DNA from: a virus
Lineage: Duplodnaviria > Heunggongvirae > Uroviricota > Caudoviricetes
Virus record (IMG/VR): IMGVR_UViG_2537561825_000012
Length of the DNA: 37,368 nt
Reading direction: 5' to 3' (one strand)
Position numbers and translations under genes: made by a program. The notes beneath the pieces were generated by a model. It saw only the letters and a list, made by a program, of their open reading frames with translations, did not search any database and was not told the origin of the DNA. Shown one piece after another: positions 5,999 to 37,368 of this stretch; position 1 is the stretch's first letter; every line of letters starts with the position of its first letter.

Positions 5999-6336
5999 AG
6001 CAGCTCCTGAGTCCGGGTCTGTCCGTCTGAGCCTTTCCAGCTCACCCGGAGCGTAAGATGTTCGCCGTCGACGGCGGGTTTAACTGACATAAGCTGGCAG
6101 CGGGGCTCCCAGCGCCGGATGGCATCGACGGATTCGCGCACCACATGCGGAATGGCCCGGTCTACAGGCCAGTCGATATAAAGATGCAGATTGCTGCCGA
6201 ACTCCGGGCGATGCGGGTCGCTGCCGCGGGGAGTCCGCAGGATAATTTGAATCGCCTGCCGGATATCATCCAGCCCCCGGACAATTTCGCCGGGAGCCTG
6301 CAGGGTCGGTTGCCAGAATACTGAGGTTGTTTTCAT
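5989..6336 (-). CDS. Baseplate wedge protein (P2 gpW / T4 gp25-like)
   Basis: 115 aa, same length as P2 gpW; position between V and J homologues. Confidence 0.7.
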   Translation of the reverse strand: MKTTSVFWQPTLQAPGEIVRGLDDIRQAIQIILRTPRGSDPHRPEFGSNLHLYIDWPVDRAIPHVVRESVDAIRRWEPRCQLMSVKPAVDGEHLTLRVSWKGSDGQTRTQELLWR

Positions 6337-6390
6337 GGGGGCAGTATTGCCCCCGTGCGGGAACGCTGATATTAAAGGCGTTTAAAAAGC

Positions 6391-8138: not shown

Positions 8139-8341
8139 GGGGCAATATCCTCTTCTGTACGGGCTTCTTCAGCCTCAATCACCGGGATCAGTAACAACAG
8201 CCCGGAGGGCAGCACCGGCGTGATGGCCACGTGCGGATTGGCGGCAATAATCCGGGGATAGCCCAGCGGGTCACCGTAGTACTGCCATGCCAGCGAATCC
8301 CAGCGCTCTCCGTCACGGGTAACATGTTCAAGAAACATCAC
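8126..8341 (-). CDS. Tail protein X-like (small LysM-like)
   Basis: 71 aa with W..YYG...........ANP pattern recalled from P2 gpX. Confidence 0.55.
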   Translation of the reverse strand: MMFLEHVTRDGERWDSLAWQYYGDPLGYPRIIAANPHVAITPVLPSGLLLLIPVIEAEEARTEEDIAPWLR

Positions 8342-9222
8342 ACACTCCTCGTCAGTATTCTGGCGGCCATTGCACTTAATTCCGGAGACATGCGGTTGAA
8401 TGCTGTGCCGGCGGCGTTAAGCTGCCCGGAAACGGTATCCAGAGCACCTGCAATATTTCTTTTGTCCACACCACTCAGCGCAGACTGTGCCTGCTGTACA
8501 TACGTGGCTGCTTCGCTGGCTGTTCTGGCCAGACTGATGGCATCGGGCATGGATTCAGAGAGTGCGTTAAACGCCGGAACACTTTTCCCCAGAGCCCCGG
8601 AGATATTACCCAGTCCGCTCATCAGCCCCGGCACACGGGTCAGTGCGACAACGGGGTTATCCTTCATTTTCTGTGTCACCCGAACGGCGCTGATAGTGGT
8701 CTGGAGTACAGACTGCGCCTGTTTCGCATAGTTGACGCCGTTGCGGATGAACTGCGCCACCCCTGAAGGTGAAGGTATGGCACCGGAGACCGCCCCGACA
8801 CCCGGGAGCTTCGTGCGTATTGCCGGTGGTTGCAGAGGATTTTTCGGGTCACCGGTGTATTCCCGGAGAGACACGGTGGCACTGACAGCCAGCACGTTGC
8901 CGGTACTGTCAGTCTGCTCGCTGGTTGCAGTCACATCGGTAATCACGAACCAGCCGCGATAGTCACCGTTGCCGAAGACCAGCGCCAGTGCCTGATGGGC
9001 TTTCATGGCTGTTCGCAGTCTCGCCAGCTCCACATCGGGTACACAATAATGCTGATGGAAAACCAGAGTTATCTGGATTTCGTCCAGCCTGTCGCCGACG
9101 AACTGCAGGCCAGGCTTACCCCCGATGCGGGCATGCTCCGCATAATCGACGCCGAACGTGGCCTCGAAGCCGTCCCAGTAGGTAATCAGCTCAAACTCAA
9201 TATCACCCAGTACGGCAAACAT
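8338..9222 (-). CDS. Tail/DNA-circulation protein (Mu N-like N-terminal domain)
   Basis: 294 aa ORF immediately downstream of the tape measure gene, overlapping its stop. Confidence 0.55.
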   Translation of the reverse strand: MFAVLGDIEFELITYWDGFEATFGVDYAEHARIGGKPGLQFVGDRLDEIQITLVFHQHYCVPDVELARLRTAMKAHQALALVFGNGDYRGWFVITDVTATSEQTDSTGNVLAVSATVSLREYTGDPKNPLQPPAIRTKLPGVGAVSGAIPSPSGVAQFIRNGVNYAKQAQSVLQTTISAVRVTQKMKDNPVVALTRVPGLMSGLGNISGALGKSVPAFNALSESMPDAISLARTASEAATYVQQAQSALSGVDKRNIAGALDTVSGQLNAAGTAFNRMSPELSAMAARILTRSV

Positions 9223-11912
9223 CAGCGGTACTCCTTACGTTGTTTCTGAGCCAGCAGACGCTCCAGCATTTTTTCCAGCTCATGCAGACTCATATTCAGG
9301 GCACCAGTCAGTCCTGCAGGCGCTGTGGTTTCCCTGCCATTGAGGAAAAACTGAGGATTAAAGCTGACCTGGATACCACCAGACGTTCCACCGCCGGTTG
9401 CAGCTGCACCACGGCCTGAATATCCGGCAGCCAGGATTTCAGGCGAGGGGATACGGGGAACATCCGGTGTCATCTCATTTGCCAGACGTTGCCCTGGTAA
9501 AATCGATGCCCGGGTGGAGAGCGGAATAGCGGGCATGGAAGACAAACTATTGATTACGGCTCCGATCGCATTTTTAGCAGACGACATAAACCCATTGATA
9601 TCGGGCAACGGCATACTGAAGCGAACACCTGAAGTGTTATCCCGTATTTCTGGCCCCTGGATGCTCACGGGCATTCTGGGGAGCAGTTCACTGGCCATTC
9701 GCTGCCCGGCCAGAGCTGCAAGCGGAGTGGTCCGCTGCAGGCCAATGGCGGCCCCCTGCGCGATATTGTCACCAAAGCCCATAAACACGCGGCTCGGCGA
9801 ATGAATGCCCAGCTTTTCGCTGACCCAGCCACTGATGCTGTCACCCATTCCGGTTACACTGGATTTGAGCGACTCCCATTTGTTTTTGATACCGTTAATC
9901 AGACCATCGACAAGATGGCCACCGAAGTCGGTAAACTTTGCCGGCAGATCAACACCAAGATATTTCAGCGCAGCTGCAAAGGCTTTATAGAGCAGGCCTG
10001 CCGGCGACCAGTTAATCAGTAACTTACCAATTCCCACAATGCCGCCGTTAAAGGCTTCCTGAATGTCTGCCCAGCGCTGTTTAAACCAGCCACTGACTGC
10101 CCCCCAGTTGCGGTAGATAAGGTAAGCTGCTGCCGCGACAGCGGTGATAACGAGACCGATGGGATTCATCATCAGCGCACGTCCAATCCAGAGAACAGCA
10201 CGTCCGGCGAGCATAATTCCGCGAACCAGCCCCCCGGAGAGCACGCCACTCAGTGTTCTGGCTCCTCTGGCGACGGCGCTAAATCCGGTCACCAGCCAGC
10301 GGAGCTTACCGCCTTGCCCCAGTGCGAGCGACAGACGAAGCCAGTTGGCCCGAAGTAAAACAGCATTTTTCCAGACACTTACAAAGGGGGAAATAAGGAG
10401 ATTCAGCCCCAGTTTGAGACCAACAGTCGCTATCTTAATCGCAAGGAGCGCACTGATGAGCTTAAAAGCCCCACTGACAAATTGCGGGTGAGTCGCTACC
10501 CAGTGTTTTGCCCCCTGAATGAGTGGAAGCAGTTCCTGAGTCAAAGAAATAAAAGATGGAGCTAATTGATCGCCCAGCGTAATTGCCAGATCGCGACTGC
10601 TGACCATAAGTGTTTTAGTGGCTTCAAGGGGAGATTTCAGCCGCTGATCATAAGCACTGGCAAGCAAATCGTTATCCGCAGCCCTGAGAGCACCGGCACG
10701 GATCTCTCGATATCTGTCCATGTTGGCCAGCATCGGGCGGATAAATGCCATGACCTGCATATCCGCGAACATATCGCCCAGACCAAAGTTTTTCGCCAGA
10801 GCCTGAAGTGCCTCATCTCTTGCCGTATCATTCTTTATTTTCATGGCTGATTTGAAGCCGGCCAGCGCTTCGGGGCTTTTGGCATTGAGGTAACGTTCTA
10901 TAACACTCAACATCCCTTCAATCGGAGAGATCCCCGCAGCTTTATAACTCGCAATAGATCCCTGCAAATCAATACCCAGATCAGCAAACTGTTTCTGAGT
11001 ATCGCGGGCAAAAATTTTGGTAAGAAAGTTTTTAAAATTATTGGCTGCTTCGTCGGTGGAACCTGCACCGATTTTTGCTATCTGGAGACTGGCCCCGATT
11101 TCAGCAACAGCCTCTTTTCCACTGGCAATCCCCGCCATCATTGGGGCCAGGGACTGCATCCACTTGACCTGATCCGGGATTTCAAATGACCCCTGGTCAC
11201 CGGCATAAGCCATAATATTCTGAACGGCACCAAAATCTCTGGCCGCACCTTTCAGGGAGTTTTGCCAGACTGCGGCCACTTTTGCCCAGTCCTGAGCAGA
11301 CGTGCGTGTTGCCGTTGCCGCGCGGGCAATATCCGGCATCAGAAAACCGATATCTGACACATTATCAATATTGTCGCTGATGAGTGAACCCACCGCCTCC
11401 TGCAGCTCATCCTGATACTGATTGTATTTAAGCGCCCAGCCTTTTATCTGTCCGGCAAGTCCATCCCGCGTTTTATTGTCATATTTTGCGGTGATCGACA
11501 TATCAATCATTTTGTCCTGAAAAGACATGGACTGCTGAACGGCAGGGGAAACCGTATGATAAACAGTCTGTGCCATGCCATACGCTTCAATCCCCTGACC
11601 ATACAGCGCCATGCGGTTAGCTTTCAGCGCATCACTGGTAGCGGATGCCGCTGACAGACGGCGCTGCTGGCGCTCAATTTGCTCCATGGTGCGGCTTACC
11701 CGCAGCAGCTCGCTGTTGAGATGCTGCATCCGGGAAGAACCCAGTTGACCATAACGTTCTGTTGCACGGGTTAAAGCGTTCTGACGTTCCTGCAGGCGGC
11801 GTGAGGTATCGCTCAGGGAATCAAGCGCACGGCGGGTACCGCTCATTGCAGAACGGAATGTGCTACCAATCATCCCGCCGATAACAACGCCGACTGAAAA
11901 CTGTCCCGACAT
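9222..11912 (-). CDS. Tail tape measure protein
   Basis: 896 aa, coiled-coil-rich N-terminus, Gly/Ala-rich hydrophobic middle; downstream of the frameshifted chaperone pair. Confidence 0.9.
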   Translation of the reverse strand: MSGQFSVGVVIGGMIGSTFRSAMSGTRRALDSLSDTSRRLQERQNALTRATERYGQLGSSRMQHLNSELLRVSRTMEQIERQQRRLSAASATSDALKANRMALYGQGIEAYGMAQTVYHTVSPAVQQSMSFQDKMIDMSITAKYDNKTRDGLAGQIKGWALKYNQYQDELQEAVGSLISDNIDNVSDIGFLMPDIARAATATRTSAQDWAKVAAVWQNSLKGAARDFGAVQNIMAYAGDQGSFEIPDQVKWMQSLAPMMAGIASGKEAVAEIGASLQIAKIGAGSTDEAANNFKNFLTKIFARDTQKQFADLGIDLQGSIASYKAAGISPIEGMLSVIERYLNAKSPEALAGFKSAMKIKNDTARDEALQALAKNFGLGDMFADMQVMAFIRPMLANMDRYREIRAGALRAADNDLLASAYDQRLKSPLEATKTLMVSSRDLAITLGDQLAPSFISLTQELLPLIQGAKHWVATHPQFVSGAFKLISALLAIKIATVGLKLGLNLLISPFVSVWKNAVLLRANWLRLSLALGQGGKLRWLVTGFSAVARGARTLSGVLSGGLVRGIMLAGRAVLWIGRALMMNPIGLVITAVAAAAYLIYRNWGAVSGWFKQRWADIQEAFNGGIVGIGKLLINWSPAGLLYKAFAAALKYLGVDLPAKFTDFGGHLVDGLINGIKNKWESLKSSVTGMGDSISGWVSEKLGIHSPSRVFMGFGDNIAQGAAIGLQRTTPLAALAGQRMASELLPRMPVSIQGPEIRDNTSGVRFSMPLPDINGFMSSAKNAIGAVINSLSSMPAIPLSTRASILPGQRLANEMTPDVPRIPSPEILAAGYSGRGAAATGGGTSGGIQVSFNPQFFLNGRETTAPAGLTGALNMSLHELEKMLERLLAQKQRKEYR

Positions 11913-23431: not shown

Positions 23432-23742
23432 TATTCACTCCAGTACTTTTCCGGGCGGGCAATACCCGGACCACATTCCACGGTGTATTCCACCAGGTCT
23501 ACGCCGAGGCGGGTCAGGTCAGCAAACCAGTCGCCAGAAGGTTTTTTCTCCAGCTCAACCATTTTACGGTCAGCCAGATAATCCAGTTCGCGGCGCAGTT
23601 CCAGCGGTGTGGTGTCCGGGTAGATGGCACGGGACACATCCAGCAGCAGCGTCTCGCTGGCGGTGTAAGGGCGGGTCTTGTTCAGGGCAACCAGCAGACT
23701 CCAGCGCAGGGATTCGCGGCGTACCCGGGTAATATCGACCAT
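23431..23742 (-). CDS. Mu gp26-like protein
   Basis: 103 aa ORF between the lysis cassette and terminase genes. Confidence 0.5.
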   Translation of the reverse strand: MVDITRVRRESLRWSLLVALNKTRPYTASETLLLDVSRAIYPDTTPLELRRELDYLADRKMVELEKKPSGDWFADLTRLGVDLVEYTVECGPGIARPEKYWSE

Positions 23743-25922: not shown

Positions 25923-26651
25923 ATGACGCAGACACTGAATCCGGTCATCACTGTCACCGTGTCCGGTCCTGTGGGCAGCGGTAAAAGTTACGTACTGGCG
26001 CGAATAGAGGAAGTGGTGAAACAGGAATTCGGAAACAGCGTCATTGTCGACGCCGCAGACGTGGACGGTGAGCGCCGTATGAGTGGGGATGATCTGAGCA
26101 CATGGCAGAAACCACGGGCTGGCACAGTGATCAGGCTGGAGGAATACACGGGACAGGGCCTGTTGTCATACGGCGAGGAGCGTATCTGTCGGACGAATGA
26201 GCTGCTGGATGTTATATGCCCCACGGGCCGGCAACCCTGGATACTGCCCGATGCACTGCATGCCACCATTGCGGCACTGATGACAGTTTACGATCAGGAG
26301 CTGCTCATGAAGGAGTTACGTAAACTCACTGGTCAGTCAACAGAATGTTGTTCGTCCCCGAAGTACGGCAAACAGGAACACATCCCGATTAACCAGCCTC
26401 CCCGGTTCTTCGACGAATACCTTCTGACACCGGAAAATAAAGCTGAGCATGAAGAGATCAAAGCGGCGTTGTTCCGGGAAATCAGGAAGATTGCTGAAAT
26501 GCAACTGGAGGGCGGGCTGGACAGAGTGATGGCGAGAGGAGAATGGGCATCGCTGTTTGAAAGAGTTTCCCCGGAATTACTTCCCCTCGCACTGGCTATC
26601 GGGATTATGCAGACAGCGGATAAACCTCACTTACGTTCATTAAACACGTAA
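25923..26651 (+). CDS. P-loop NTPase, kinase-like (zeta-toxin / polynucleotide-kinase-like motif arrangement)
   Basis: Walker A GPVGSGKS at residues 15-22 followed about 14 aa later by GNSVIVDAAD; GGAG RBS 8 nt upstream. Confidence 0.6.
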   Translation: MTQTLNPVITVTVSGPVGSGKSYVLARIEEVVKQEFGNSVIVDAADVDGERRMSGDDLSTWQKPRAGTVIRLEEYTGQGLLSYGEERICRTNELLDVICPTGRQPWILPDALHATIAALMTVYDQELLMKELRKLTGQSTECCSSPKYGKQEHIPINQPPRFFDEYLLTPENKAEHEEIKAALFREIRKIAEMQLEGGLDRVMARGEWASLFERVSPELLPLALAIGIMQTADKPHLRSLNT

Positions 26652-27031
26652 CGCATAATCCGGGATACGCATTCAGCGATGACTGCATTTTCACCGGTTT
26701 TTACTGCATCCAGAAGTGACTCTTTAAATGGTACGGGCCGGGGCTGCAGAAAGGTCGGCATGGCATTGAGCAGACAGAGCGTTTTTTCCGTGAGGACGAC
26801 ATCAGCCGCTCCCACAGCCAGCAACTGAGAGTAACGAATATAGCTGTTATCCCGAAGCCATATCAGCGTATCAATAAAACACCGGCACTTTTTCTGGTCG
26901 TGATCAACCTGGTCCGGGATATCGAAAAAACCAGAATAAATCAAAACCTGAGGTGCCGGATGCGTGTTCAGTAATCGGCAGAATATTTTGCCGGTGAGTA
27001 CATAAAAATCATCATTTAAGGAGTGCATCAT
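26627..27031 (-). CDS. Hypothetical 134-aa protein, antisense to the surrounding plus-strand module
   Basis: Only long ORF covering the 380-bp plus-strand gap in moderately AT-rich DNA; convergent 25-bp overlap with the upstream gene. Confidence 0.45.
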   Translation of the reverse strand: MMHSLNDDFYVLTGKIFCRLLNTHPAPQVLIYSGFFDIPDQVDHDQKKCRCFIDTLIWLRDNSYIRYSQLLAVGAADVVLTEKTLCLLNAMPTFLQPRPVPFKESLLDAVKTGENAVIAECVSRIMRYVFNERK

Positions 27032-27245
27032 GAATCCCCGATTAACGTTAACAGAACATCAGCGCCGTGCTGAAGCAGTGAACAATGTTCTGGAAGATAT
27101 TATCCGGTTATACCGCGGAGAACTGAGTGTCTGTCGTGCCGCTTTTCATTTTCAGGGAATACAAAAGCAGTTTGATACTTCTGTTTTTGCAGAAGGTATT
27201 ACTTATGCCCTGGACCGGATAAGGTCAGAAAATCGCCCCGGATAA
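27030..27245 (+). CDS. Hypothetical 71-aa protein
   Basis: ATG with AAGGAG 6 nt upstream. Confidence 0.5.
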   Translation: MNPRLTLTEHQRRAEAVNNVLEDIIRLYRGELSVCRAAFHFQGIQKQFDTSVFAEGITYALDRIRSENRPG

Positions 27246-27300
27246 TCCCTAAACCACATTAACAGAAATCCCGCCATCCCTGCCGCATCATGAAAGAACG

Positions 27301-27330
27301 ACCAGCCCGGCACCCGAAAGCCGGGCTGGT
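27301..27330. other. Perfect 11-bp GC-rich stem-loop between the 71-aa ORF and the methyltransferase gene
   Basis: ACCAGCCCGGC-acccgaaa-GCCGGGCTGGT; no clean U-tract on the plus strand, UUCUUUC on the minus strand. Confidence 0.4.
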
Positions 27331-27435
27331 CATCGCCCCACAGGAATGCGCTGTGAGCCGACCAAGGTTCAGTCAGTCTCGCGAGACCTGACCAGACTGC
27401 CATATTTTTTAATAATTGTAAAAGGCTTGCAGATT

Positions 27436-28200
27436 ATGAAAATGCAGACATTACCCATCGTGCCGTGGATTGGTGGCAAACGCCGCCTTGCAAAACACAT
27501 TCTGCCGCTGTTTCCGGCGCATGAATGTTATGTGGAGCCGTTTTGTGGGGCAGCAGCGCTCTATTTTCTTAAGACACCCGGCAAGATCGAAGTCATCAAT
27601 GATATCAACGGTGAACTGGTGAATCTGTACCGGGTGGTAAAGCATCACCTGGAAGAATTTGTCCGCCAGTTCAAATGGGCGCTGGTCAGCCGTCAGATCT
27701 ACAAATGGCTGCAGATCACCCCGGAAGAAACACTGACGGATATCCAGCGTGCGGCACGGTTCTACTACCTTCAGAAGCAGGCGTTTGGCGGCAAGGTGGC
27801 AGAGCACAGCTTCGGTACCTCCACCACATCCCCGCCACGCTTCAACCTGCTACGTATTGAAGAAGAACTGTCAGCGGCACACCTGCGGCTTTCCAGAACA
27901 GTCATAGAACACATGGACTGGCAACAGTGCATTGAGCGTTATGATCGTCCGCACACGCTGTTCTACTGCGACCCACCGTACCTGGGTACGGAAGGCTATG
28001 GTGTGGATTTTCCTGAAGGGAACTACTCGCGGCTGGCAGAGCTGGCCCGGTGCATCAGAGGAAAAATGATAATTTCGGTGAACGACATCCCGCAGATGCG
28101 CGAGGTGTTCACTGGACTGAACATACAGACAGTGAATATCAACTACAGTCTGGCGGGTAAACCCACGCCGCGCCGTGAACTGCTAATCTGCAACTTCTGA
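27436..28200 (+). CDS. dam: DNA adenine methyltransferase, Dam family
   Basis: WIGGK, EPFCGAAA and CDPPY motifs; ATG at 27436 (the ORF-track start at 27346 is upstream). Confidence 0.8.
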   Translation: MKMQTLPIVPWIGGKRRLAKHILPLFPAHECYVEPFCGAAALYFLKTPGKIEVINDINGELVNLYRVVKHHLEEFVRQFKWALVSRQIYKWLQITPEETLTDIQRAARFYYLQKQAFGGKVAEHSFGTSTTSPPRFNLLRIEEELSAAHLRLSRTVIEHMDWQQCIERYDRPHTLFYCDPPYLGTEGYGVDFPEGNYSRLAELARCIRGKMIISVNDIPQMREVFTGLNIQTVNINYSLAGKPTPRRELLICNF

Positions 28201-28209
28201 AACAAAACC

Positions 28210-28232
28210 GGAAAGCACAATGCTTTCCGGTA
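28210..28232 (-). terminator. Intrinsic terminator between the convergent methyltransferase and repressor genes
   Basis: CCGGAAAGCA-caa-TGCTTTCCGG 10-bp stem; UUUUGUUU follows on the minus strand, so it terminates repressor-strand transcripts and possibly both directions. Confidence 0.55.
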
Positions 28233-28316
28233 AACCAAACAACTTCCACTATGTCACTGGCGATGTTTTCTGAAAGCATCCAGATCAACCACCTGTCCTT
28301 TGTGTCCGGGTCAGTA

Positions 28317-28673
28317 TCAGCCTGCGATTTTTCCTGGTTTTGGCTGAGTATAGAATCGCCCAATCTCAAGAAATGAGCGTTGTTGGTCTGGTGTCATGTC
28401 GTCAAAAGTATCTATTAGTTTTTGTTTTTCTGGGGAAATTTGATTCTGGTTTCTAGTCATACCATCTGTGCTCATTCCAGTGAGCAACCAATTTACATCA
28501 ACATTAAACTCTTGATGCATCTTTAACAGAAACTCCCCTCCAGGCATCGCCTTTCCATTTTCAATCTGACTGATACCACCATTAGAAATACCTAAACGAG
28601 CTGCAAATTCTCTCTGGTTCAACCCTGCTTTCTTCCTCACAGAAATAACGCGCTCTCCTATATCTTTGCTCAT
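28317..28673 (-). CDS. Prophage repressor, HTH XRE (CI/Cro-type)
   Basis: N-terminal HTH LNQREFAARLGISNGGISQIENG; divergent from the early operon; operator palindrome in the intergenic region. Confidence 0.8.
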   Translation of the reverse strand: MSKDIGERVISVRKKAGLNQREFAARLGISNGGISQIENGKAMPGGEFLLKMHQEFNVDVNWLLTGMSTDGMTRNQNQISPEKQKLIDTFDDMTPDQQRSFLEIGRFYTQPKPGKIAG

Positions 28674-28696
28674 AAAAGTGAATCTCTATCTTGATA

Positions 28697-28714
28697 TGCT
28701 CATAATTATGAGCA
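28697..28714. promoter_or_regulatory. Operator: perfect 18-bp palindrome between -35 and -10 of the early promoter
   Basis: TGCTCATAATTATGAGCA, flanked by TTGATA (28691-28696) and AATAAT (28714-28719); a half-site copy TGCTCATAA lies at 28667-28675 over the repressor start codon. Confidence 0.6.
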
Positions 28715-28766
28715 ATAATCTAACACATATAAGGCAAACATCATTGCATCAACAAAGGAGACAACG

Positions 28767-28955
28767 ATGACTGCAGAACAAGTCAAAGCTCTCTTCCGCC
28801 AGCGCGGGATCACTTTCACCCGCTGGGCAGAAGAAAACGGCTACAACCGCAATGAGGTATACCGCGTTCTCAACGGGCAGACCAAAGCCCGTTACGGTAA
28901 ATCCCATGAAATCGCCGTGAAGTTGGGACTGAAATCAACAGCTCAGGCGGCCTAA
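28767..28955 (+). CDS. Small DNA-binding protein at the Ner/Cro position
   Basis: 62 aa; AAGGAG RBS; first gene of the early operon, divergent from the repressor. Confidence 0.6.
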   Translation: MTAEQVKALFRQRGITFTRWAEENGYNRNEVYRVLNGQTKARYGKSHEIAVKLGLKSTAQAA

Positions 28956-29001
28956 ATATTTTGAGTCTTTGTAAAAGGTTATCACATATCGCAAAAGAGG
29001 T

Positions 29002-29316
29002 ATGCAGATGAGTAAGACGAATGTTTCAAGCTCCGGCAGTCGCATCCTCCGGGTACTCAAAGCGCTGCGCGGTCATGCCCTGAACGGTATTTCTAACGGT
29101 GAACTGGCGACAGCACTGCACGAGTCACCGGCAAACATCAACCGGGCACTCAACACCCTCATTGAAGAAGGGCTGGCTCTGAAACTGGAGAACGGACGTT
29201 TTGCACCGGGCATCCAGTTACTGCAGATCGCCATGGCCCACAGTAACGAGATGGCACGTGCACAGGATCGTATTAACGAAATTAACCAACGTGTCATTTC
29301 AGGTAGTCGTTTGTAA
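29002..29316 (+). CDS. Winged-helix transcriptional regulator-like protein
   Basis: 104 aa with an IclR-like N-terminal HTH pattern (GISNGELATALHESPANINRALNTLIEEG); likely start at the second ATG, 29008. Confidence 0.5.
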   Translation: MQMSKTNVSSSGSRILRVLKALRGHALNGISNGELATALHESPANINRALNTLIEEGLALKLENGRFAPGIQLLQIAMAHSNEMARAQDRINEINQRVISGSRL

Positions 29317-29326
29317 GGAGTAATCA

Positions 29327-30247
29327 ATGGGACGTACCAAATCACCGATTAACACTGAACTGAACGCCGATGTACCGCTGTCGGATGATCTCAACGTCAG
29401 CCTGAATGCCATGACACAGCATCGCATGGAGATCATGCAGCAGTTTGGTGATGGACTGCCTTATGAACGTGAACGCATCGTTCACGAAGCACGTTTTTAT
29501 ATGGCGCAGAGTGCTGAATCTATGTTGGAAGCGGGTAAGCGGCTGATCATCTTAAAAGAAAATGAACCGCATGGTGATTTCACAAATATTCTGGAAAACG
29601 ACCTCGGATTAGCACCACAGGTAGCTCGTCGCATGATGCAGGCCAGCGTGAAATTTCTCGGCAATGGAGATGAACAGCCAAAACGCTCAGCGCTGAGCGT
29701 TTTGGGAAAAACCAAGTTATATGAACTGATGGTTCTGGATGACGAAGAACTCGACGCATTAGCTGATGGTGGAACCGTCGCCGGTGCAACGCTTGATGAT
29801 ATTGATCGCATGACCAGCCGCGAACTGAAGGCCGCCCTGCGTGAAGCGCGCGAAACCAACGCAGCTCAGCAACAGGTGCTTGCCGGAAAGGACGAAAAAA
29901 TCAACGAACTGGCCACAAAACTGGAGAAGAAATCGCGCCTGCAACCTCCGCCGCCAGACGAAGAACTGAAAAAATTGCGGGCGGAAGTGACGGCATTAGC
30001 GGTTGAGGCCGAATCGGCTATCGCCGTCCGGCTGTCCAGTGTTTTTGAGACCCTGTGTGAATACTGCACCAAAAACATGATCGATACCCCCAGAGATTTC
30101 ATGGCCGGTCTGGTCTGCCAGATTGAACGCAGTGTTCATGCATTACGTGAGACGTTTGACCTTGAGGCCGCTCCATCGGGTAACGATGCCCCCGCCTGGC
30201 TGACCGAACCGGAACCTGAAATCAACCGACCGGAGGATATGCAGTAA
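29327..30247 (+). CDS. Hypothetical protein (acidic, coiled-coil rich)
   Basis: 306 aa ORF with AAGGAG RBS. Confidence 0.6.
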   Translation: MGRTKSPINTELNADVPLSDDLNVSLNAMTQHRMEIMQQFGDGLPYERERIVHEARFYMAQSAESMLEAGKRLIILKENEPHGDFTNILENDLGLAPQVARRMMQASVKFLGNGDEQPKRSALSVLGKTKLYELMVLDDEELDALADGGTVAGATLDDIDRMTSRELKAALREARETNAAQQQVLAGKDEKINELATKLEKKSRLQPPPPDEELKKLRAEVTALAVEAESAIAVRLSSVFETLCEYCTKNMIDTPRDFMAGLVCQIERSVHALRETFDLEAAPSGNDAPAWLTEPEPEINRPEDMQ

Positions 30248-30564
30248 TGAATACGAATAACACACAAAATACCCTGATGGACAGCCCGGAGGCACTGGGG
30301 CACGCACTGTGTAATCTGCTGCCGGAGATGGTGCAGGGTTTCCGCGTGGTGACCCCTTCCGGTGAAATCTGCGTACCCGCACAGGAGACGCACCCGTTTG
30401 TACTGACGATGGAGGTGATGCTGATGCAGCAGATAAGACGTCTGCAGAATCAGTCAGCATTACGCCCGGTAGTTGCACCGCAACCGGTAAATACCGTGGT
30501 GAAAACCTGCGATGGCGAAACACTGTGCGACCTCGCCAGAAAAATTGCCGCCAGAATCGGATAA
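30247..30564 (+). CDS. Hypothetical protein
   Basis: 105 aa, start overlaps upstream stop (TAATG), GGAGGA RBS. Confidence 0.55.
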   Translation: MNTNNTQNTLMDSPEALGHALCNLLPEMVQGFRVVTPSGEICVPAQETHPFVLTMEVMLMQQIRRLQNQSALRPVVAPQPVNTVVKTCDGETLCDLARKIAARIG

Positions 30565-30579
30565 CAGGGAAGACAAGCT

Positions 30580-32349
30580 ATGACCCCGGCACTGACTGAA
30601 AAACTGGTTGAAACAGCCCGCGCGGCACGTGACGCGGGGCATGGTAAACGCGGTGCAATATACGACGCTGCCTGTGCTGAACTTGGCATGTCCCGCGCCA
30701 CTCTGCTGCGCAGGCTGAAGGAGGTATCTGTGACTGATAAACGCAAAAAACGCGCCGATGCCGGGCGCAGCGCCCTGACCCGCGACGAAGCCGCGCTGAT
30801 ATCTGCCACACTGCGTGAGGCCACCCGCAAGAACGGTAAGCGTCTCTATTCCATCGCAGATGCAGTGGAAACCCTGCGGGCTAACGGCTTTATCACCGCA
30901 GGCAGAACAGATGAAACCACCAGTGAGTTTTTCCCGTTGTCTGAAGATGCCATCAGCCGTGCTCTGCGTAACTATGGCCTGCACCCGGAACAACTGGATG
31001 CCCCTGCACCACATACCGAAGTGGCCAGTCTGCATCCCAATCATGTCTGGCAGATTGACGCCTCACTCTGCACGCTTTACTACCTGAGCAATGGACATAA
31101 AGGGCTGCAGGTGATGGACAGCGCGAAGTTCTACAAGAACAAGCCCGCTAACCTTGCCCGTATCGCCAGTGACCGCGTGTGGAGTTACGAGATTACCGAC
31201 CATGCCAGCGGCTGGATTTACGTTGAGTATGTGACGGGCGCGGAATCAGGTGAGAACCTGTGTTCTGTGCTTATCAACGCCATGCAGGAGCGTGGCGGCG
31301 CAGACGTGCTGCACGGCGTGCCGAAAATACTCTATCTCGACCCCGGCTCGGCAAACACCGCGGGTATGACGAAAAACATGTGCCGCTCACTGGGCATCGA
31401 CCTGATAGCGCACAAGCCGCATAACGCCCGCGCCACCGGACAGGTGGAAAAGGCGCGTGACATTATCGAACGCAAGCTGGAGCCGGGTCTGAAGTTCCGG
31501 CCGGTTCACAGTCTGGAAGAACTCAACGCGCTGGCCGCGAAATGGCGCAGCCACTTTAACGCCACGGCTGTTCACAGCCGCCACGGTAAAACCCGCACGG
31601 ATATCTGGCTGAAGATTACTGCTGAGCAGCTGAAAAAAGCGCCTTCCGTTGAGGTATGTCGTGAACTGGCTGTGGCGGCACCAGAACTCCGCAAAGTCAC
31701 GCCAAAACTTCGTGTCTCGTTCCGGGGCACTGAATTTGACGTATCAACGGTACCGGGCGTACTGGTTGGTGAAAAACTGATGATTACCCGTAACCCATGG
31801 CGCAGCGATGTGGCACAGGTGGTTCTGACCGGTGAGGACGGCCACGAGACGTTCTTCCTGGTCGAAGAGGTCAGAAAGAACGAGTTTGGCTTTGCTGAAG
31901 GCGCGGCGGTATTTGGCGAAAGTTACAAAGCCCTGCCGGAAACCCCGGCACAGATGGCGGCAAAAGAAACCGAAGCGCTGGTTACCGGTACAGACAACGC
32001 CGCAGATGCAGCCGCCGCACGCAAGGCGAAGGCGCTGCCGTTCGGCGGGCGGCTTGACCCGTATAAACATATCGACGACACCACACTTCCGGCCTATATG
32101 CCGAAGCGTGGTCAGGCCTCTGACGTACGCGGGCCGCGCACTGAACAACGTCCCATGACTCATGTGGAGGCCGCGAAAGCCCTGCGCGATAAGTTCAGCG
32201 CCGACGGCCTTACCTGGACGCCGGAACATTACCGCCAGTTAACGGCACAGTACCCGGACGGCGTACCGGAAGCCGCACTGGATGAAGTCATGGCCACGCT
32301 GACCACACCGGCCCGCAGCAGTGTTATCAGCATTGTTAACGGCAACTGA
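30580..32349 (+). CDS. DDE transposase (Mu A-like)
   Basis: 589 aa; integrase-type catalytic core pattern (HVWQIDAS..., YLDPGSANT...); directly followed by the AAA+ B-like gene. Confidence 0.8.
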   Translation: MTPALTEKLVETARAARDAGHGKRGAIYDAACAELGMSRATLLRRLKEVSVTDKRKKRADAGRSALTRDEAALISATLREATRKNGKRLYSIADAVETLRANGFITAGRTDETTSEFFPLSEDAISRALRNYGLHPEQLDAPAPHTEVASLHPNHVWQIDASLCTLYYLSNGHKGLQVMDSAKFYKNKPANLARIASDRVWSYEITDHASGWIYVEYVTGAESGENLCSVLINAMQERGGADVLHGVPKILYLDPGSANTAGMTKNMCRSLGIDLIAHKPHNARATGQVEKARDIIERKLEPGLKFRPVHSLEELNALAAKWRSHFNATAVHSRHGKTRTDIWLKITAEQLKKAPSVEVCRELAVAAPELRKVTPKLRVSFRGTEFDVSTVPGVLVGEKLMITRNPWRSDVAQVVLTGEDGHETFFLVEEVRKNEFGFAEGAAVFGESYKALPETPAQMAAKETEALVTGTDNAADAAAARKAKALPFGGRLDPYKHIDDTTLPAYMPKRGQASDVRGPRTEQRPMTHVEAAKALRDKFSADGLTWTPEHYRQLTAQYPDGVPEAALDEVMATLTTPARSSVISIVNGN

Positions 32350-32359
32350 GGAGGGAAAC

Positions 32360-33526
32360 ATGCTGGTACTGAAGCAGCAACTGAAAGAGGCCCGTATTCC
32401 ACAGGCGGTGGTGGCGAGAGCTGTCGATGTTTCTGAGGCCACGCTGGCCCAGATTGTGAATCATAACGCGTGGCCCCGCACCAGCCCCGGAGAAGTGCGC
32501 CGGCGTCTTGCGTCCTGGCTGGAAAGTCAGGGGATTGATACAACGAAGAGTTTTGATGCTGTACAGGGCGCGGCCACGCCCCGTACAGCGGGTACCACAG
32601 ATAAAACGAGCCTCAGTGAGGAAGAGAATATGTTACTCAAAAAACAGGTGTTATTTCCAGCAACCAAAAAAGCGTTTGGTCTTTTCCGTGACCCGTTCGC
32701 CGACGAAGCCATGCAGGGTTCTGATGATGTGTTCACCACCCCGGATATTCGCTACGTGCGTGAGGCGTTGTACCAGACAGCCCGTCATGGTGGGTTTATG
32801 GCCGTCATCGGTGAGTCCGGTGCGGGTAAATCCACGCTGCGCCGCGACCTGACTGAACGTATCACCCGCGAGAATGCGCCGGTAATTGTTATCGAGCCAT
32901 ACATCATCGCTATGGAAGACAACGATGTGAAAGGGAAAACCCTGAAGGCAGCAGCGATTGCCGAAGCCATTATCAGTACCATCGCACCACTGGAAAGCAT
33001 CAGACGCAGTCAGGACGCCCGCTTTCGCCAGTTGCATCGCGTCCTGAAAGACAGCAGCCAGGCGGGGTTCAGCCACGTTCTGGTGATTGAGGAGGCCCAC
33101 AGTCTGCCCATTCCGACACTGAAACACCTCAAACGCTTTTTTGAGCTGGAGTCCGGTTTCAAAAAACTGCTGTCCATCGTGCTGATTGGCCAGCCGGAAC
33201 TGGCGACAAAACTGTCTGAACGCAATATGGAAGTCCGTGAAGTCGTTCAGCGCTGTGAGGTGGTCGAACTTCTGCCTCTGGACAATAACCTTGAAGAGTT
33301 TCTGACGTTCAAACTGCAACGGGCCGGTAAACAACTGACGGACATTATGGACGCCAGCGCAGTGGATGCCATACGTGCCCGCCTGAGCAATCCGGGAAGT
33401 CATCGTAAAAATATGGTCAGCCTGCTGTATCCGCTGGCCGTCAGTAACCTGGTAATAGCCGCCATGAATCTGGCCGCTGAAATCGGGGTTCCACAGGTCA
33501 ACGCTGACGTTGTCAAAGGGGTTTAA
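32360..33526 (+). CDS. AAA+ ATPase transposition protein (Mu B-like)
   Basis: ATG at 32360 after GAGGAGGG; N-terminal HTH, Walker A GESGAGKST, Walker B VLVIEEAH. Confidence 0.8.
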   Translation: MLVLKQQLKEARIPQAVVARAVDVSEATLAQIVNHNAWPRTSPGEVRRRLASWLESQGIDTTKSFDAVQGAATPRTAGTTDKTSLSEEENMLLKKQVLFPATKKAFGLFRDPFADEAMQGSDDVFTTPDIRYVREALYQTARHGGFMAVIGESGAGKSTLRRDLTERITRENAPVIVIEPYIIAMEDNDVKGKTLKAAAIAEAIISTIAPLESIRRSQDARFRQLHRVLKDSSQAGFSHVLVIEEAHSLPIPTLKHLKRFFELESGFKKLLSIVLIGQPELATKLSERNMEVREVVQRCEVVELLPLDNNLEEFLTFKLQRAGKQLTDIMDASAVDAIRARLSNPGSHRKNMVSLLYPLAVSNLVIAAMNLAAEIGVPQVNADVVKGV

Positions 33527-33528
33527 TA

Positions 33529-33798
33529 ATGAAATCCACCACAGGTATCAACCAGCAAATCAGCAAAGTGCAGTCAGCCATTATGGCGCTTAAGGCGACG
33601 AACACGGATGTACAAAGCATCACCATCAGGGGTAACAAACCTGTCATCCGCGTTTCCCGGAGTGCGCATTGCATGCGCATGCTTGAGCAGGGAAAGGCCT
33701 GTTATCTGTATACCGGTCATGACCACAGGGGACATTTCCGTCAGGGCGTTTTCGAACTGCACGGCTGTCGCGTCGTGTGGCCGGAATCTTTGTGGTAA
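33529..33798 (+). CDS. Hypothetical protein (Mu kil position)
   Basis: 89 aa ORF with RBS, between B-like and Gam-like genes. Confidence 0.5.
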   Translation: MKSTTGINQQISKVQSAIMALKATNTDVQSITIRGNKPVIRVSRSAHCMRMLEQGKACYLYTGHDHRGHFRQGVFELHGCRVVWPESLW

Positions 33799-33825
33799 TC
33801 AGCACAACAGGAGGAGTCATAAAAT

Positions 33826-34356
33826 ATGGCAAAAAGTACAAAAGGGGCAAAACGTATCAAAGCCGCAGCAGCACTCTGGGTGCCGGGGACACGCGAAGAG
33901 GTCATTGAGGGAATCAGACTGCTTGGTGACGCGCAACGTGAACTGGTCAGGGCTGAAACAGAAATGAATGACACCATTGGCGACATCACTGCACGTTATG
34001 CCCCGCTCACCGAGAGCCTGAAAAAACGCATGGCCGAACTGCAGTCCGGTATCCAGACATGGTGTGAGGCGCACCGTGATGAACTGACCGGCAACGGGAA
34101 GGTGAAGTTCGCTAACCTCACCCCCGGCGAGGTGCAGTGGCGAAACCGTCCGCCGTCAGTCAGCATTCGCGGGGCGGATAATGTCATTGAACTGCTGAGA
34201 CGTCTGGGGCTTGAGCGCTTTATTCGTGTAAAAGAGGAAATAAATAAAGACGCTATCCTGAATGAAAAAGAGGCCGTGAAAAATATTCCCGGTATTTCCA
34301 TTAAAAGCGACATTGAGGATTTTTCAATAATTCCTTTTGAGCAGGATGTGCAGTAA
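33826..34356 (+). CDS. gam: Host-nuclease inhibitor Gam-like protein
   Basis: 176 aa; AGGAGGAG RBS; size and position match Mu Gam. Confidence 0.7.
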   Translation: MAKSTKGAKRIKAAAALWVPGTREEVIEGIRLLGDAQRELVRAETEMNDTIGDITARYAPLTESLKKRMAELQSGIQTWCEAHRDELTGNGKVKFANLTPGEVQWRNRPPSVSIRGADNVIELLRRLGLERFIRVKEEINKDAILNEKEAVKNIPGISIKSDIEDFSIIPFEQDVQ

Positions 34357-34453
34357 ACACACCACGTTAATTATTTAATAAAAACATTTTCTTTTTTATT
34401 CCGACGTCAGCGCCGCGGGCTTCTGCACGCCGGAAACAGAGGAGAATTAAATC

Positions 34454-34648
34454 ATGATATTTAAATGTATTCAGTGCGAGAGGGATATAACAGCCCTGCG
34501 TTTTCACAGCGCCATCGCCGTGATGTCCGGTAAATACCACATCCCTGCGGTACGCGTCACCCTGGTCTGCCCGTACTGCAGCCAGCATTTTTCGGCAGAC
34601 GTGCCCGTCATGGAATTCTCCCGCCCTGACAGGGAGGACTCGCAATGA
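34454..34648 (+). CDS. Small zinc-ribbon protein (CxxC...CxxC)
   Basis: 64 aa with CIQC and CPYC pairs; GGAG RBS. Confidence 0.55.
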   Translation: MIFKCIQCERDITALRFHSAIAVMSGKYHIPAVRVTLVCPYCSQHFSADVPVMEFSRPDREDSQ

Positions 34649-34917
34649 TTACCCCACAGGAAGCACGACAGCGCACCCGAACCCTTGTTGAACACTATGT
34701 CAACGAGTGTGAATGCCGCGACCTCACCGATGTGAAGCACGTCCTGACGGCGCTAATCAGCATGACCGCTCAAGCCATTGTGGCGACCAACGGAAAGGCG
34801 GCTGCCCTGCAGGTACTGGTGAACACACTAACCCACACGGCAGCGCATGAGGTGCCGTACCGGATGGAAACCACTGCAGAAGGCGGCCTGCACATCACCG
34901 TCAGCCGGAAGCACTGA
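34645..34917 (+). CDS. Hypothetical protein
   Basis: 90 aa, ATGA overlap with upstream gene, AGGGAGGA RBS. Confidence 0.55.
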   Translation: MITPQEARQRTRTLVEHYVNECECRDLTDVKHVLTALISMTAQAIVATNGKAAALQVLVNTLTHTAAHEVPYRMETTAEGGLHITVSRKH

Positions 34918-34926
34918 GGGCGCGGC

Positions 34927-35223
34927 ATGACACGGAACACCATACTCACCCGCACCGCCCTCTACCGTCTGGCCCTGCAGCGTTTCGGGCCGGACGCACA
35001 GGCCCTGAAACTGACAGAAGAGGCCGCTGAACTGGCGGCCAGTGCTGCCCGCAATCTGAACGGACAGGGCAGCGAAAGCGACCTCGCGGCAGAGCTGGCA
35101 GACGTGGAAATCATGACAGAGCAATTGCGCCTTCAGGGGATGGACCGGCTGATTGACTTCCACAAACAGAAAAAACTGGAACGTCTGGCTGCACGACTGG
35201 GCGTGATTTACACGAACGAGTAA
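34927..35223 (+). CDS. MazG-like nucleotide pyrophosphohydrolase domain protein
   Basis: 98 aa all-helical; EEAAELAAS and ELADVEIM acidic motifs characteristic of MazG-type enzymes. Confidence 0.5.
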   Translation: MTRNTILTRTALYRLALQRFGPDAQALKLTEEAAELAASAARNLNGQGSESDLAAELADVEIMTEQLRLQGMDRLIDFHKQKKLERLAARLGVIYTNE

Positions 35224-35237
35224 CCGGGAGGCATTCA

Positions 35238-35453
35238 ATGGCTGACATACTCAGGGAAATCACCGCATGGATACTGATTCTTACTGGCCTGGCGACATGC
35301 CTCAGTGCGGGGGCAGCCCTGGCTGCCCTGCTGATGCACATAACAACACAGTGGTTATGGGAAAAGCTTAAAGCAGCATACAGCCTGAAAGAGCTGTCCG
35401 ACGCTGTCCGGGCATGGAAACGGCAGAAAAATACCGGAGATACAGAACAATGA
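35238..35453 (+). CDS. Small membrane protein
   Basis: 71 aa with one hydrophobic segment; GGGAGG RBS. Confidence 0.5.
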   Translation: MADILREITAWILILTGLATCLSAGAALAALLMHITTQWLWEKLKAAYSLKELSDAVRAWKRQKNTGDTEQ

Positions 35454-36133
35454 CAGACCAGAATAAACACATTGAGAAACTGAAAAAGTTGCTGGCGCTG
35501 GCCGCATCCGGCAACCCGCACGAGGCCGCTCTGGCACTGTGCCGAGCCCGTAAACTGATGGATGTTCACGGCATCACACATTCCGACATTGCTATGAGTG
35601 ATATTGATGAAACCATCAGTCACTACTGGCCGACAGGCAGTCTCCGTCCACCGCGCTACATGCTGGGCCTGATGAACATCATCCGCGAGGTATTTGGTGT
35701 TAACTCCATCATTCACCCCGGCACGCATCCGTCTGTGGGGTTCTACGGCAACCGGGAACGTGCGGCACTGGCTGCATACACCTGGGAAGTGCTGGCCCGT
35801 CAGCTGAAAAAGGCGCGTCAGCAGTATATCAGTGCACAGAACAAAAGAATAAAAACCGCCACCCGCACCAGCCGTGGAGACCAGTTTGCCGAAGGCTGGG
35901 TGCTGGCCGTTATCAGTGAAATACAGTCCTTTGCCCTGACCGATGATGAGCGTGAACTGATGCAGCAGTGGCTGGAACATAAATACCCGCAGACGCAAAC
36001 CACCAGGGCGCGTAAACCGGGAAGAAGCCGCAATGGCGACGCCTCGCGCTATGCGGGGTTTCGTGAAGGGCAGAACGTCAGACTGCACCGCCCGGTCAGT
36101 GGGCAGGAACAACAGAAACTGGAGGCCAGATGA
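35450..36133 (+). CDS. Hypothetical early protein with KLLALAASGNPHEAALAL motif
   Basis: ATG at 35450 overlapping the upstream stop with GGAGA RBS; the ORF-track start at 35414 is less likely. Confidence 0.55.
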   Translation: MTDQNKHIEKLKKLLALAASGNPHEAALALCRARKLMDVHGITHSDIAMSDIDETISHYWPTGSLRPPRYMLGLMNIIREVFGVNSIIHPGTHPSVGFYGNRERAALAAYTWEVLARQLKKARQQYISAQNKRIKTATRTSRGDQFAEGWVLAVISEIQSFALTDDERELMQQWLEHKYPQTQTTRARKPGRSRNGDASRYAGFREGQNVRLHRPVSGQEQQKLEAR

Positions 36134-36360
36134 TTACGCTATCAGGTAAAAGCCGGAAATTAAAAGCCTGCCGAATATCTGCCAGATACCTTTTTGCCCG
36201 CGCCTTTTTTAAGAACGTCAGGCCGGGGATCACAATTGGTGTTATTGCCGGACGCGAACAGGTTGAAAAATACATGTCAGGTGCATGGTGGAATAACGAC
36301 CCTGTCATTGCTGCCCGTAATATTCATATCGAATGGGGAGGTATTCAGAATGACTACTGA
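36130..36360 (+). CDS. Hypothetical protein
   Basis: 76 aa, ATGA overlap with the upstream gene. Confidence 0.45.
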   Translation: MITLSGKSRKLKACRISARYLFARAFFKNVRPGITIGVIAGREQVEKYMSGAWWNNDPVIAARNIHIEWGGIQNDY

Positions 36361-36556
36361 AACCATTGTCTGTTTTCTTTTCTGGTATATGTACGCAGGA
36401 TCATGCAGCGCAAGACTTCATCGTTCCCTGGGCTATGGCAGGCACTACGACACCGCGCATTACATCCTGTACATGACCGCCGTCATGTTGTTCTGGCCAG
36501 TCCCCCTGCCAGCTGCAACCGACATTGTTGCCGACAGACTGAAAAAAAGGAGATGA
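36350..36556 (+). CDS. Small membrane protein
   Basis: 68 aa from ATG at 36350 with GGGGAGG RBS; hydrophobic segments. Confidence 0.45.
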   Translation: MTTETIVCFLFWYMYAGSCSARLHRSLGYGRHYDTAHYILYMTAVMLFWPVPLPAATDIVADRLKKRR

Positions 36557-36557
36557 T

Positions 36558-37007
36558 ATGCAGAAAAAACGCCTGATACAGCTTATCCATATTGCCCGTA
36601 ATGAACTGGGTATGGATGAAGACACCTACCGCCAGATGTTACAGGGGCTGACCGGTAAAGCCTCAACCAAAGGAATGGATACCACACAACTAAACTGCGT
36701 GCTGGAATCCATGAAAAAGAAAGGCTTTCGCGTTAAACCAGCCAGAAAAGCCAGCTCCGGTTTACCGCTGGATAACCATCCGCAGTCCAGGAAAATTCGT
36801 GCGCTATGGCTTGAAATGGCTGCTGCCGGCATTGTTCGTGACCGTTCAGAAAATGCATTAGCGAGGTGGATCAAGCGGGAAACGGGCATCAGCGCCCTGC
36901 GCTGGCTCAGTACTGAACAGGCAAGCAGTGTTATTGAGAAACTGAAGAAGTGGCAGCGCAGAGCTGCGGGAGTCAAACATGAGCGACCTGAATCAGTTTC
37001 GAAGTAA
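36558..37007 (+). CDS. gemA: GemA-like regulatory protein (Mu gp16 family)
   Basis: 149 aa; N-terminal KKRLIQLIHIARNELGMDEDTYR pattern; overlaps the Mor-like gene as in Mu. Confidence 0.7.
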   Translation: MQKKRLIQLIHIARNELGMDEDTYRQMLQGLTGKASTKGMDTTQLNCVLESMKKKGFRVKPARKASSGLPLDNHPQSRKIRALWLEMAAAGIVRDRSENALARWIKRETGISALRWLSTEQASSVIEKLKKWQRRAAGVKHERPESVSK

Positions 37008-37368
37008 GGGGCCGGAACTCCTGGTGGAACTGGCACAGCATACCTCTGAGACCGTTCGCGAGATTATTGATATTGAGCCCGAAGTTGCCGACCAGATTGG
37101 TCAGGCCGTCGCGAACCGAATGATGCAGGTCTGGGGCGGGCAAAACGTTTATTTCCCGATGGGCATGGTATGGAAGGTCAGTCAGCGCGACCGGGAAATC
37201 TTCAGGGAGTTTAACGGACGCAACCACCACGAACTGGCCCGCAAATTTGGTGTTTCGCTTCAGTGGGTCTACAGCGTGGTTAAGCGGGTAAGAAAAGAAG
37301 AACTGGATCGGATGCAGGGCAAGCTATTTGCTGATGAACCCGATGCAGATACGGAGAAAAAAGAGTAA
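36979..37368 (+). CDS. mor: Mor-family transcriptional activator
   Basis: 129 aa; conserved GGQNVYFP...FNGRN..ELARKFGVS...VY pattern of Mor/C activators; stop codon is the last triplet of the window. Confidence 0.75.
   Translation: MSDLNQFRSKGPELLVELAQHTSETVREIIDIEPEVADQIGQAVANRMMQVWGGQNVYFPMGMVWKVSQRDREIFREFNGRNHHELARKFGVSLQWVYSVVKRVRKEELDRMQGKLFADEPDADTEKKE

Follow-up and report, generated by a model that had tools for sequence, protein, structure and literature searches.

What do the small genes between gam and gemA do for a Mu-like prophage, and are they a kit for taking over the host? The question is raised by positions 34357 to 36556 of IMG/VR record IMGVR_UViG_2537561825_000012, a 37,368-nucleotide (nt) stretch of viral DNA (the window). 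An earlier note, made from its letters alone, had described seven short genes at this place, numbered O1 to O7 below, and suggested host takeover or anti-defense functions for them. Prophages of this type are present in about one ninth of complete E. coli genomes, and the seven proteins are annotated there as hypothetical or as a domain of unknown function (DUF). We favor, with slightly better than even confidence, the explanation that the interval is the distal part of a single early operon of a BcepMu-like E. coli prophage, consisting of a conserved leader, a backbone of four genes, and three swappable cassettes, to which a working model of roles can be attached. The features of the interval and its two flanking genes are as follows.

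33826-34356, + strand: Gam, Mu Gam-type DNA-end-binding protein, upstream flank (Pfam Phage_Mu_Gam, E 1.2e-39)
34364-34456, + strand: conserved leader element of ~90 nt, between the stop of Gam and the start of O1
34454-34648, + strand: O1, 64-amino-acid (aa) zinc-ribbon protein, C5xxC8 ... C39xxC42 (phrog_3401, E 1.6e-40)
34645-34917, + strand: O2, 90 aa, no assigned function, variable or absent in relatives (phrog_3691, E 7.4e-55)
34927-35223, + strand: O3, 98 aa, putative MazG-type (all-alpha) nucleoside triphosphate (NTP) pyrophosphohydrolase (phrog_2245, E 2.8e-34)
35238-35453, + strand: O4, 71 aa, predicted single-pass membrane protein, optional cassette (phrog_3958, E 1.7e-41)
35450-36133, + strand: O5, 227 aa, DUF2786 + DUF7168 protein, largest gene and conserved anchor of the interval
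36130-36360, + strand: O6, 76 aa, no assigned function, optional cassette (phrog_3681, E 6.5e-55)
36350-36556, + strand: O7, 68 aa, two hydrophobic segments, in every case immediately before gemA (phrog_6436, E 5.2e-45)
36558-37007, + strand: GemA, downstream flank (Pfam GemA, E 8.3e-41)

Seven genes, a backbone and cassettes

All seven open reading frames (ORFs) are real genes and not chance ORFs. The earlier note had listed them as short, tightly packed ORFs with good ribosome-binding sites; their coordinates were confirmed and equal the RefSeq calls made by the Prokaryotic Genome Annotation Pipeline (PGAP) in a prophage of E. coli EcPF7. The ORFs were thus correctly placed in that note, with the shortcoming that the largest of them, O5, was not singled out. 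Each has a full-length match to a PHROG family (E 2.8e-34 to 2.7e-76) and a purine-rich, Shine-Dalgarno-like stretch 5-12 nt before its ATG. Neighboring genes from O1 to O7 are spaced by -11 to +14 nt, and three of the junctions are ATGA overlaps. On the + strand, nothing resembling a promoter or a terminator was found inside the cluster, as expected if it forms one operon. Against divergent homologs drawn from 79 IMG/VR loci, the ratio of nonsynonymous to synonymous substitution rates (dN/dS) of O1-O7 was 0.11-0.54, indicating purifying selection overall, with dS saturated in the most distant pairs. The values by gene were:

O1: 0.16-0.19; 0.57 against the 30%-identical copy in locus L072
O2: 0.13-0.54
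O3: 0.13-0.14
O4: 0.38-0.42
O5: 0.11-0.16
O6: 0.14-0.17, against 72-73% homologs
O7: 0.13-0.14, against 81-83% alleles

The seven genes are already in public databases, in families that are known but uncharacterized, and the region is an ordinary one for a transposable phage. The database names of the proteins are "hypothetical," "DUF2786 domain-containing," or, for O3 in IMG, "NTP pyrophosphatase (non-canonical NTP hydrolase)."

Presence and absence of each gene were scored over the same 79 loci and a variant prophage (HSP60). O1, O3, O5, and O7 are kept broadly in related phages and make up the backbone; O2, O4, and O6 vary in presence and are swappable cassettes. O1 is a zinc ribbon, as its CxxC...CxxC pattern had suggested at first reading, and is predicted to bind metal: C5, C8, C39, and C42 are unchanged across 11 homologs, down to 23% identity. 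It matched no Pfam family above threshold. O7 homologs of 32-47% identity retain the two hydrophobic segments together with recurring AELHR and WPxALP motifs. Two small membrane proteins had been proposed in the cluster. O4 is a clear case of one transmembrane segment, its hydrophobic span covering about residues 4-36 and its Kyte-Doolittle 19-residue maximum being 2.02; O7 is less hydrophobic (1.47), yet its two hydrophobic segments are conserved.

Prophages that are nearly identical elsewhere differ at O2, O4, O6, and O7, where alleles have been replaced or genes lost. O2, in which a central QAIVATNG motif is conserved, has alleles of 74-80% identity among prophages otherwise at least 95% identical. 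O4 is missing from the HSP60 prophage and from many loci, and has an allele at 67-70% identity whose divergence is confined to the transmembrane part. O6 is carried by some lineages only, and an O7 allele at 40% identity occurs within otherwise ~97% identical prophages. This turnover is compatible with host interaction, without proving it. For O2 and O6, the searches gave no clue past their PHROG families. The search for host-interaction functions can be guided by two groups: the backbone linked to nucleotides and replication, namely O3 and O5 along with O1 and O7, and the set of cassettes (O2, O4, and O6) together with divergent O7 alleles.

A leader hairpin after gam

The 97-nt gap between Gam and O1 is more than spacer DNA: it aligns with the 98-nt gap between gam and gp11 of Mu and with the corresponding gap of a sister lineage, in which MuB is 93% identical and Gam is replaced by a DUF3164 protein (L042 3408-4019; L043 3782-4393; E 3e-80). 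The leader contained in these gaps consists of an AT/U-rich tract, a GC-rich hairpin, AAACAG, a Shine-Dalgarno sequence, and the ATG. The hairpin core of the window lies at 34401-34433 and reads CCGACGTCAG-CGCCGCGGGCTTC-TGCACGCCGG. Mu and three Mu-like lineages have the leader after Gam or DUF3164, where it ends on the ATG of the next gene; in a third Mu-like group this next gene is the MazG-like one. Copies outside the window are located at:

Mu (L087): 6330-6426
L043: 4379-4475
L126: 2894-2985
L132: 2894-2982 and 3513-3602

A covariance model of the leader (R1), built from four sequences, was searched in 64 loci and gave 39 matches, all on the + strand. Thirty-eight of them stand at one matching position after Gam or DUF3164. 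The 39th is the second leader copy in L132, where two copies precede two successive genes. The exact hairpin pattern was found in 62 IMG/VR contigs of phage-genome size, in 61 of them directly after Gam (23) or DUF3164 (38). In those 61 contigs the next ATG follows the hairpin by 18-24 nt and starts a gene of the O1 type in 40 cases and of the O3 type in 21.

Folded singly, Mu, L043, and the window each give the inner hairpin independently. In the model-fitted alignment 86% of cells pair, compared with 35-58% when partners are slid, and both sides of the inner helix have changed in 7 of 14 pairs (for example, U-A in 28 and C-G in 7 sequences); these counts are supportive, not conclusive, because the alignment leans towards structure. 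No match to Rfam 15 was obtained at E <= 1 on either strand of 33400-37368, and no description of a post-gam hairpin was found in the searchable literature, from which older Mu papers are absent. The hairpin is the sole element of this region outside current catalogues.

Two candidate functions for the leader were rejected. Its U tract lies 5' of the hairpin, and it is therefore not an intrinsic terminator; the Gam-O1 gap itself yielded neither a promoter nor a terminator. Hiding of the Shine-Dalgarno sequence was rejected as a general feature, the pairing probability over 32 distinct sequences being 0.55 compared with 0.57 in shuffles. Such pairing was clearly above shuffles in the window's own lineage only (0.85 versus 0.53), and masking is visible when the window, Mu, and L043 are folded singly. 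We suppose that the hairpin would act in cis on the expression or stability of the distal early mRNA. Our preferred guess is a binding or processing site at the RNA level, and a site at the DNA level is also a candidate. Common to this prophage and Mu, the leader hairpin offers a handle on distal early-gene expression in transposable phages that is testable in the classical Mu system.

O3, O5, and the case for host takeover

O3 had been called MazG-like on account of its EExxE and ExxD motifs, and we accept this assignment as the probable one for both fold and chemistry, as several weak lines of evidence converge on it. The superfamily pattern is EExxE followed by ExxD 12-28 residues on; O3 has EEAAE at residues 31-35 and ELAD at 56-59, 20 residues apart. 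Across 58 relatives of 32-54% identity, Q25, E31, E32, E35, E56, A58, D59, and L87 are invariant, a set that includes the acidic residues of both motifs. Thirteen of these relatives match Pfam MazG at E <= 0.01. O3 itself stays below the curated cut-offs, with PRA-PH as the best Pfam family (14.5 bits compared with 21.3) and hisI in NCBIfam (14.3 bits compared with 42.7). Searches of the PDB with the single sequence or a narrow family profile (A2) returned nothing relevant; a broad family profile (A3) weakly matched the solved chains 5ie9, 2q73, 2q5z, 2gta, and 1vmg (E 0.02-0.6). The PDB names 5ie9 a nucleotide pyrophosphohydrolase. We take 2q73 and 2q5z to be the integron MazG and 2gta to be B. 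subtilis YpjD, and presumably all five chains, 5ie9 and 1vmg included, are of the MazG type. An AlphaFold2 model of O3 has four helices, with a predicted local distance difference test score (pLDDT) of 76. The subfamily is made up of ~95-aa proteins and is large: a search at E <= 1e-3 gave 10,760 cluster representatives.

Distant O3 relatives (36-50% identity) occur in two settings. One, found in ~20 further Mu-like phages, is the interval from DUF3164 to GemA; in the other, found in unrelated phages, they lie beside genes for VapE-like primase-helicases (7 loci) or ThyX (4 loci). In part of the sister lineage, the O2/O3 position is filled by a PF04447 dATP/dGTP pyrophosphohydrolase (L042 4507-4998, E 5e-44). 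An alignment of the O3 family with this protein by hhalign gave a probability of 0.1% and showed no homology. One nucleotide pyrophosphohydrolase has thus been swapped for another, which argues that the slot requires this enzymatic function. By its predicted chemistry, O3 would cleave (d)NTPs to (d)NMP (nucleoside monophosphate) and pyrophosphate in a metal-dependent reaction, and may clean or adjust the nucleotide pool during the transpositional replication of the phage.

Some O3 homologs carry a C-terminal extension of ~70 aa (..LLEDWCGAVPNSAFIGA..), among them P0076 and P0095 (169 aa) and the protein at L066 4331-4951. In P0100, an O1-like zinc ribbon appears to be fused to O3, and the C-terminus is garbled, probably from a frameshifted sequence. 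O2 (90 aa, 34645-34914) and O3 (98 aa, 34927-35220) share a cluster in a protein collection made at 90% identity despite being unrelated; a fused or mis-called representative may lie behind this.

O5 combines DUF2786 (residues 8-44; 39.4 bits, Pfam cut-off 23.9) with, behind it, DUF7168 (residues 46-189; 90.3 bits, cut-off 25.5). Its structure model is confident (pLDDT 86.6) and combines a helical hairpin at the N-terminus with a beta-alpha-beta-beta-alpha core and additional helices. The block from R117 to R142 is basic and conserved (R117, R123, K132, R133, K135, and R142), which suggests nucleic-acid binding, and O5 is probably a nucleic-acid-binding protein. Homologs were found in 205 phage records, including those of Pseudomonas, Ralstonia, and Xanthomonas phages, and on 303 plasmids, 244 of them conjugative. 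A PDB search with the single O5 sequence gave nothing relevant, its matches in BFVD were limited to other uncharacterized DUF2786/DUF7168 phage proteins, and a search of a large protein collection for domain architectures with the N-terminal DUF2786 profile returned fragments of <100 aa and nothing else. In the searchable literature DUF2786 is mentioned in passing by five papers, and DUF7168 was not found. A replication and partition context for the family comes from the one SPI-7-type element inspected, pSGI4, which has the order parA-dnaB-parB-DUF2786-...-STY4528 replication protein-Topo III.

Relatives of O3 lie beside primase-helicase and ThyX genes, and O5 homologs beside parA-dnaB-parB and a replication protein; both conserved genes therefore accompany replication and nucleotide metabolism. 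Judged by gene context, this points to support of DNA replication, and O5 would be a basic, probably nucleic-acid-binding protein, kept by many mobile elements close to genes for replication and partition, that serves replication or establishment of the element. A joint proposal goes further, and we offer it tentatively. The post-gam hairpin would be an undescribed cis-acting RNA of Mu and Mu-like lineages, either a binding site for a conserved factor of phage or host or a processing or stabilizer signal, that marks and controls a swappable accessory slot, and DUF2786-DUF7168 would be a new nucleic-acid-binding factor for replication or establishment in transposable phages, integrative conjugative elements, and conjugative plasmids.

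Several points weigh against our explanation of the interval. The outer helix of the leader, between U tract and Shine-Dalgarno sequence, is unsupported across the family (mean pairing 0.55, shuffled 0.57). The hydropathy maximum of O7 falls under the usual cut-off. The high allele turnover seen in O2, O4, and O7 would be explained by an arms race no less well than by neutral mosaicism. The biochemical roles of all seven proteins are ones that we infer; the observations themselves concern the reality of the genes, their families, their conservation, and their contexts.

Of the competing explanations, the strongest is the one suggested by the earlier note, that the whole cluster is a host-takeover or anti-defense island whose small proteins inhibit defense or repair, or reprogram the cell, early in lytic growth. 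As stated it is not supported, and we regard it as a rather unlikely possibility. It has the position of the cluster in its favor, since the interval from Gam to GemA corresponds to the semi-essential region of Mu, and each of the Gam and GemA proteins of JBD30, a Mu-like Pseudomonas phage, has been reported to render DNA sensitive to the Gabija defense system (preprint PMC12407980). It would also account for the gain, loss, or replacement of O2, O4, O6, and O7 by very divergent alleles in prophages otherwise 95-100% identical, for the relatively raised dN/dS of O2 (up to 0.54) and O4 (~0.4), and for a content unrelated to the genes that Mu has in the same interval, as expected of fast-evolving accessory genes. 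However, selection on all seven genes is purifying overall, not positive; the setting of O3 and O5 in unrelated mobile elements is one of replication and nucleotide genes; and what took over the O3 slot was again a nucleotide pyrophosphohydrolase and not some unrelated gene. The profile searches that the note had proposed for each ORF did give a PHROG family every time, but no match to a characterized host-directed or anti-defense protein in Pfam, PHROGs, NCBIfam, PADLOC, or the PDB. With NCBIfam nothing was found above cut-off for O1-O7, and with the PADLOC models the seven proteins had no match except one of O6 to JetC at chance level (E 0.026, 10 bits). No paper tying MazG, prophages, and anti-defense together was found in the searchable literature. 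The anti-defense reading suits O2, O4, O6, and O7 best and O3 and O5 poorly. The small variable genes, the membrane peptides foremost, are plausible host-interaction genes within the operon as we describe it.

A narrower alternative, which we consider improbable, concerns O3. It holds that the enzyme acts on signaling nucleotides, such as (p)ppGpp or defense messengers, or depletes a specific host NTP, and that it serves takeover or counter-defense instead of housecleaning of the pool. For this speak the proposal of (p)ppGpp as a target of MazG-family enzymes, the place of O3 in an early operon among fast-evolving neighbors, and the dATP/dGTP-type enzyme in the slot of the sister lineage, which indicates that the slot concerns specific nucleotides. 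On the other side, a cyanophage MazG is said, in the title of the study devoted to it, to be a pyrophosphohydrolase unable to hydrolyze magic-spot nucleotides, and a mycobacterial MazG reportedly, again by title, takes part in the housecleaning of 5-OH-dCTP. The proximity of the O3 family to ThyX and primase-helicase genes elsewhere also counts against it. Finally, the idea that some of the short ORFs are chance or annotation artifacts, with the true gene on the opposite strand, can draw on a minus-strand coding sequence that the depositors of Escherichia phage PhiKM placed where O1 lies and on long antisense ORFs such as 35111-36112 on the - strand, but it is effectively refuted by the end-to-end PHROG match of + strand O1, its four cysteines kept at 23% identity, its dN/dS of 0.16-0.19, the choice of the + strand ORF by PGAP at that position, and like evidence for all seven ORFs.

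The prophage and comparison with known systems

The window holds a transposable prophage that is BcepMu-like (genus Bcepmuvirus), with E. coli as host. Late genes lie on the - strand (267-25825). The early genes, on the + strand, run from ~25.9 kb up to the end of the window (25923-37368) and include, in order, transposase (MuA), MuB-like ATPase, an 89-aa ORF, Gam, the O1-O7 cluster, GemA, and Mor. The early genes not listed above are:

30580-32349, + strand: transposase (MuA)
32321-33526, + strand: MuB-like ATPase
33529-33798, + strand: 89-aa ORF directly after the MuB-like gene (phrog_2041, E 1e-36)
36979-37368, + strand: Mor, end of the early operon (PGAP "Mor transcription activator family protein")

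The 89-aa ORF occupies the position of Mu kil, matches the Kil family phrog_6381 weakly (E 0.023), and is kept in most related loci. E. coli EcPF7 carries a 100%-identical prophage in which the host gene araH comes after Mor; the window end is therefore the right end of the prophage. Late and early genes are thus arranged divergently, with Mor at the prophage end beside host DNA, unlike the single orientation of Mu. The 2.2-kb O1-O7 interval was found in 629 of 5,426 complete E. coli genomes, nearly full length in 621. In prophages with 96-100% identity in MuB, O5, and GemA, that of Mor varies between 80 and 100%, so mosaic exchange reaches beyond the cluster, up to the right end of the prophage. 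Both substitutions in the sister lineage, DUF3164 for Gam and PF04447 in the O2/O3 slot, exchange non-orthologous genes at a fixed position.

The last 3.6 kb of the window (33800-37368) are 98.8% identical to PhiKM. Over the conserved + strand O1, the PhiKM record (PQ738613) has a minus-strand hypothetical protein at 23520-23741 (L001 4568-4789); it also names Mor "protein C" and one short ORF "Fe2+ ABC transporter permease." All three are likely annotation errors.

Compared with the MazG/all-alpha NTP pyrophosphohydrolase superfamily, of which E. coli MazG (3cra), the integron MazG, YpjD, and PRA-PH/HisE are members, O3 differs in forming its own large subfamily under the curated cut-offs. 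DUF2786/DUF7168 proteins are common to the Pseudomonas transposable phages JBD24 and B3, pSGI4, and Acinetobacter conjugative plasmids. JBD24 gp17 is 36% identical to O5 and occupies the equivalent slot, separated from gemA by one small gene; O5 alone among the seven has a JBD24 counterpart. In pSGI4, the DUF2786 gene belongs to a partition/replication block and not to a phage early operon. These relatives give O5 a context and not a mechanism.

The Com/mom system of Mu offers a partial parallel to the leader and O1. Com has been described as an activator of mom translation that binds the mom mRNA (PMC6483171). Com and O1 are both small CxxC...CxxC proteins of Mu-type phages. Com, a zinc-finger protein, has a leader hairpin as its target, and a structured leader stands immediately before the zinc-ribbon gene O1. 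However, O1 had no match to the Com family in a Pfam scan at E <= 1, which returned eight weak zinc-finger families instead, and what follows the post-gam leader can be an unrelated gene, namely gp11 (in Mu) or, in another lineage, a MazG-like one. O1 therefore cannot be the universal partner of the leader.

The closest comparison is with the gp11-gp15 region of Mu. The earlier note had equated the interval with the semi-essential region of Mu and had judged its content to differ, and both statements held. A tblastn search of O1-O7 against Mu 1-11000 gave nothing better than E 0.095, and within that part of Mu only Gam, GemA, and Mor were found, so that gp11-gp15 have no detectable similarity to any of the seven. 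Mu gp13 is also cysteine-rich, yet it is unrelated, and the Mu interval has neither a DUF2786/DUF7168 gene nor a MazG-like gene. The order of MuA, MuB, a small ORF, and Gam, and then of GemA and Mor, agrees between the two phages. The region has the same operon position in both, with homologous Gam (60% identity), GemA, and Mor at its borders, many small genes without assigned function between them, and the same leader hairpin after gam.

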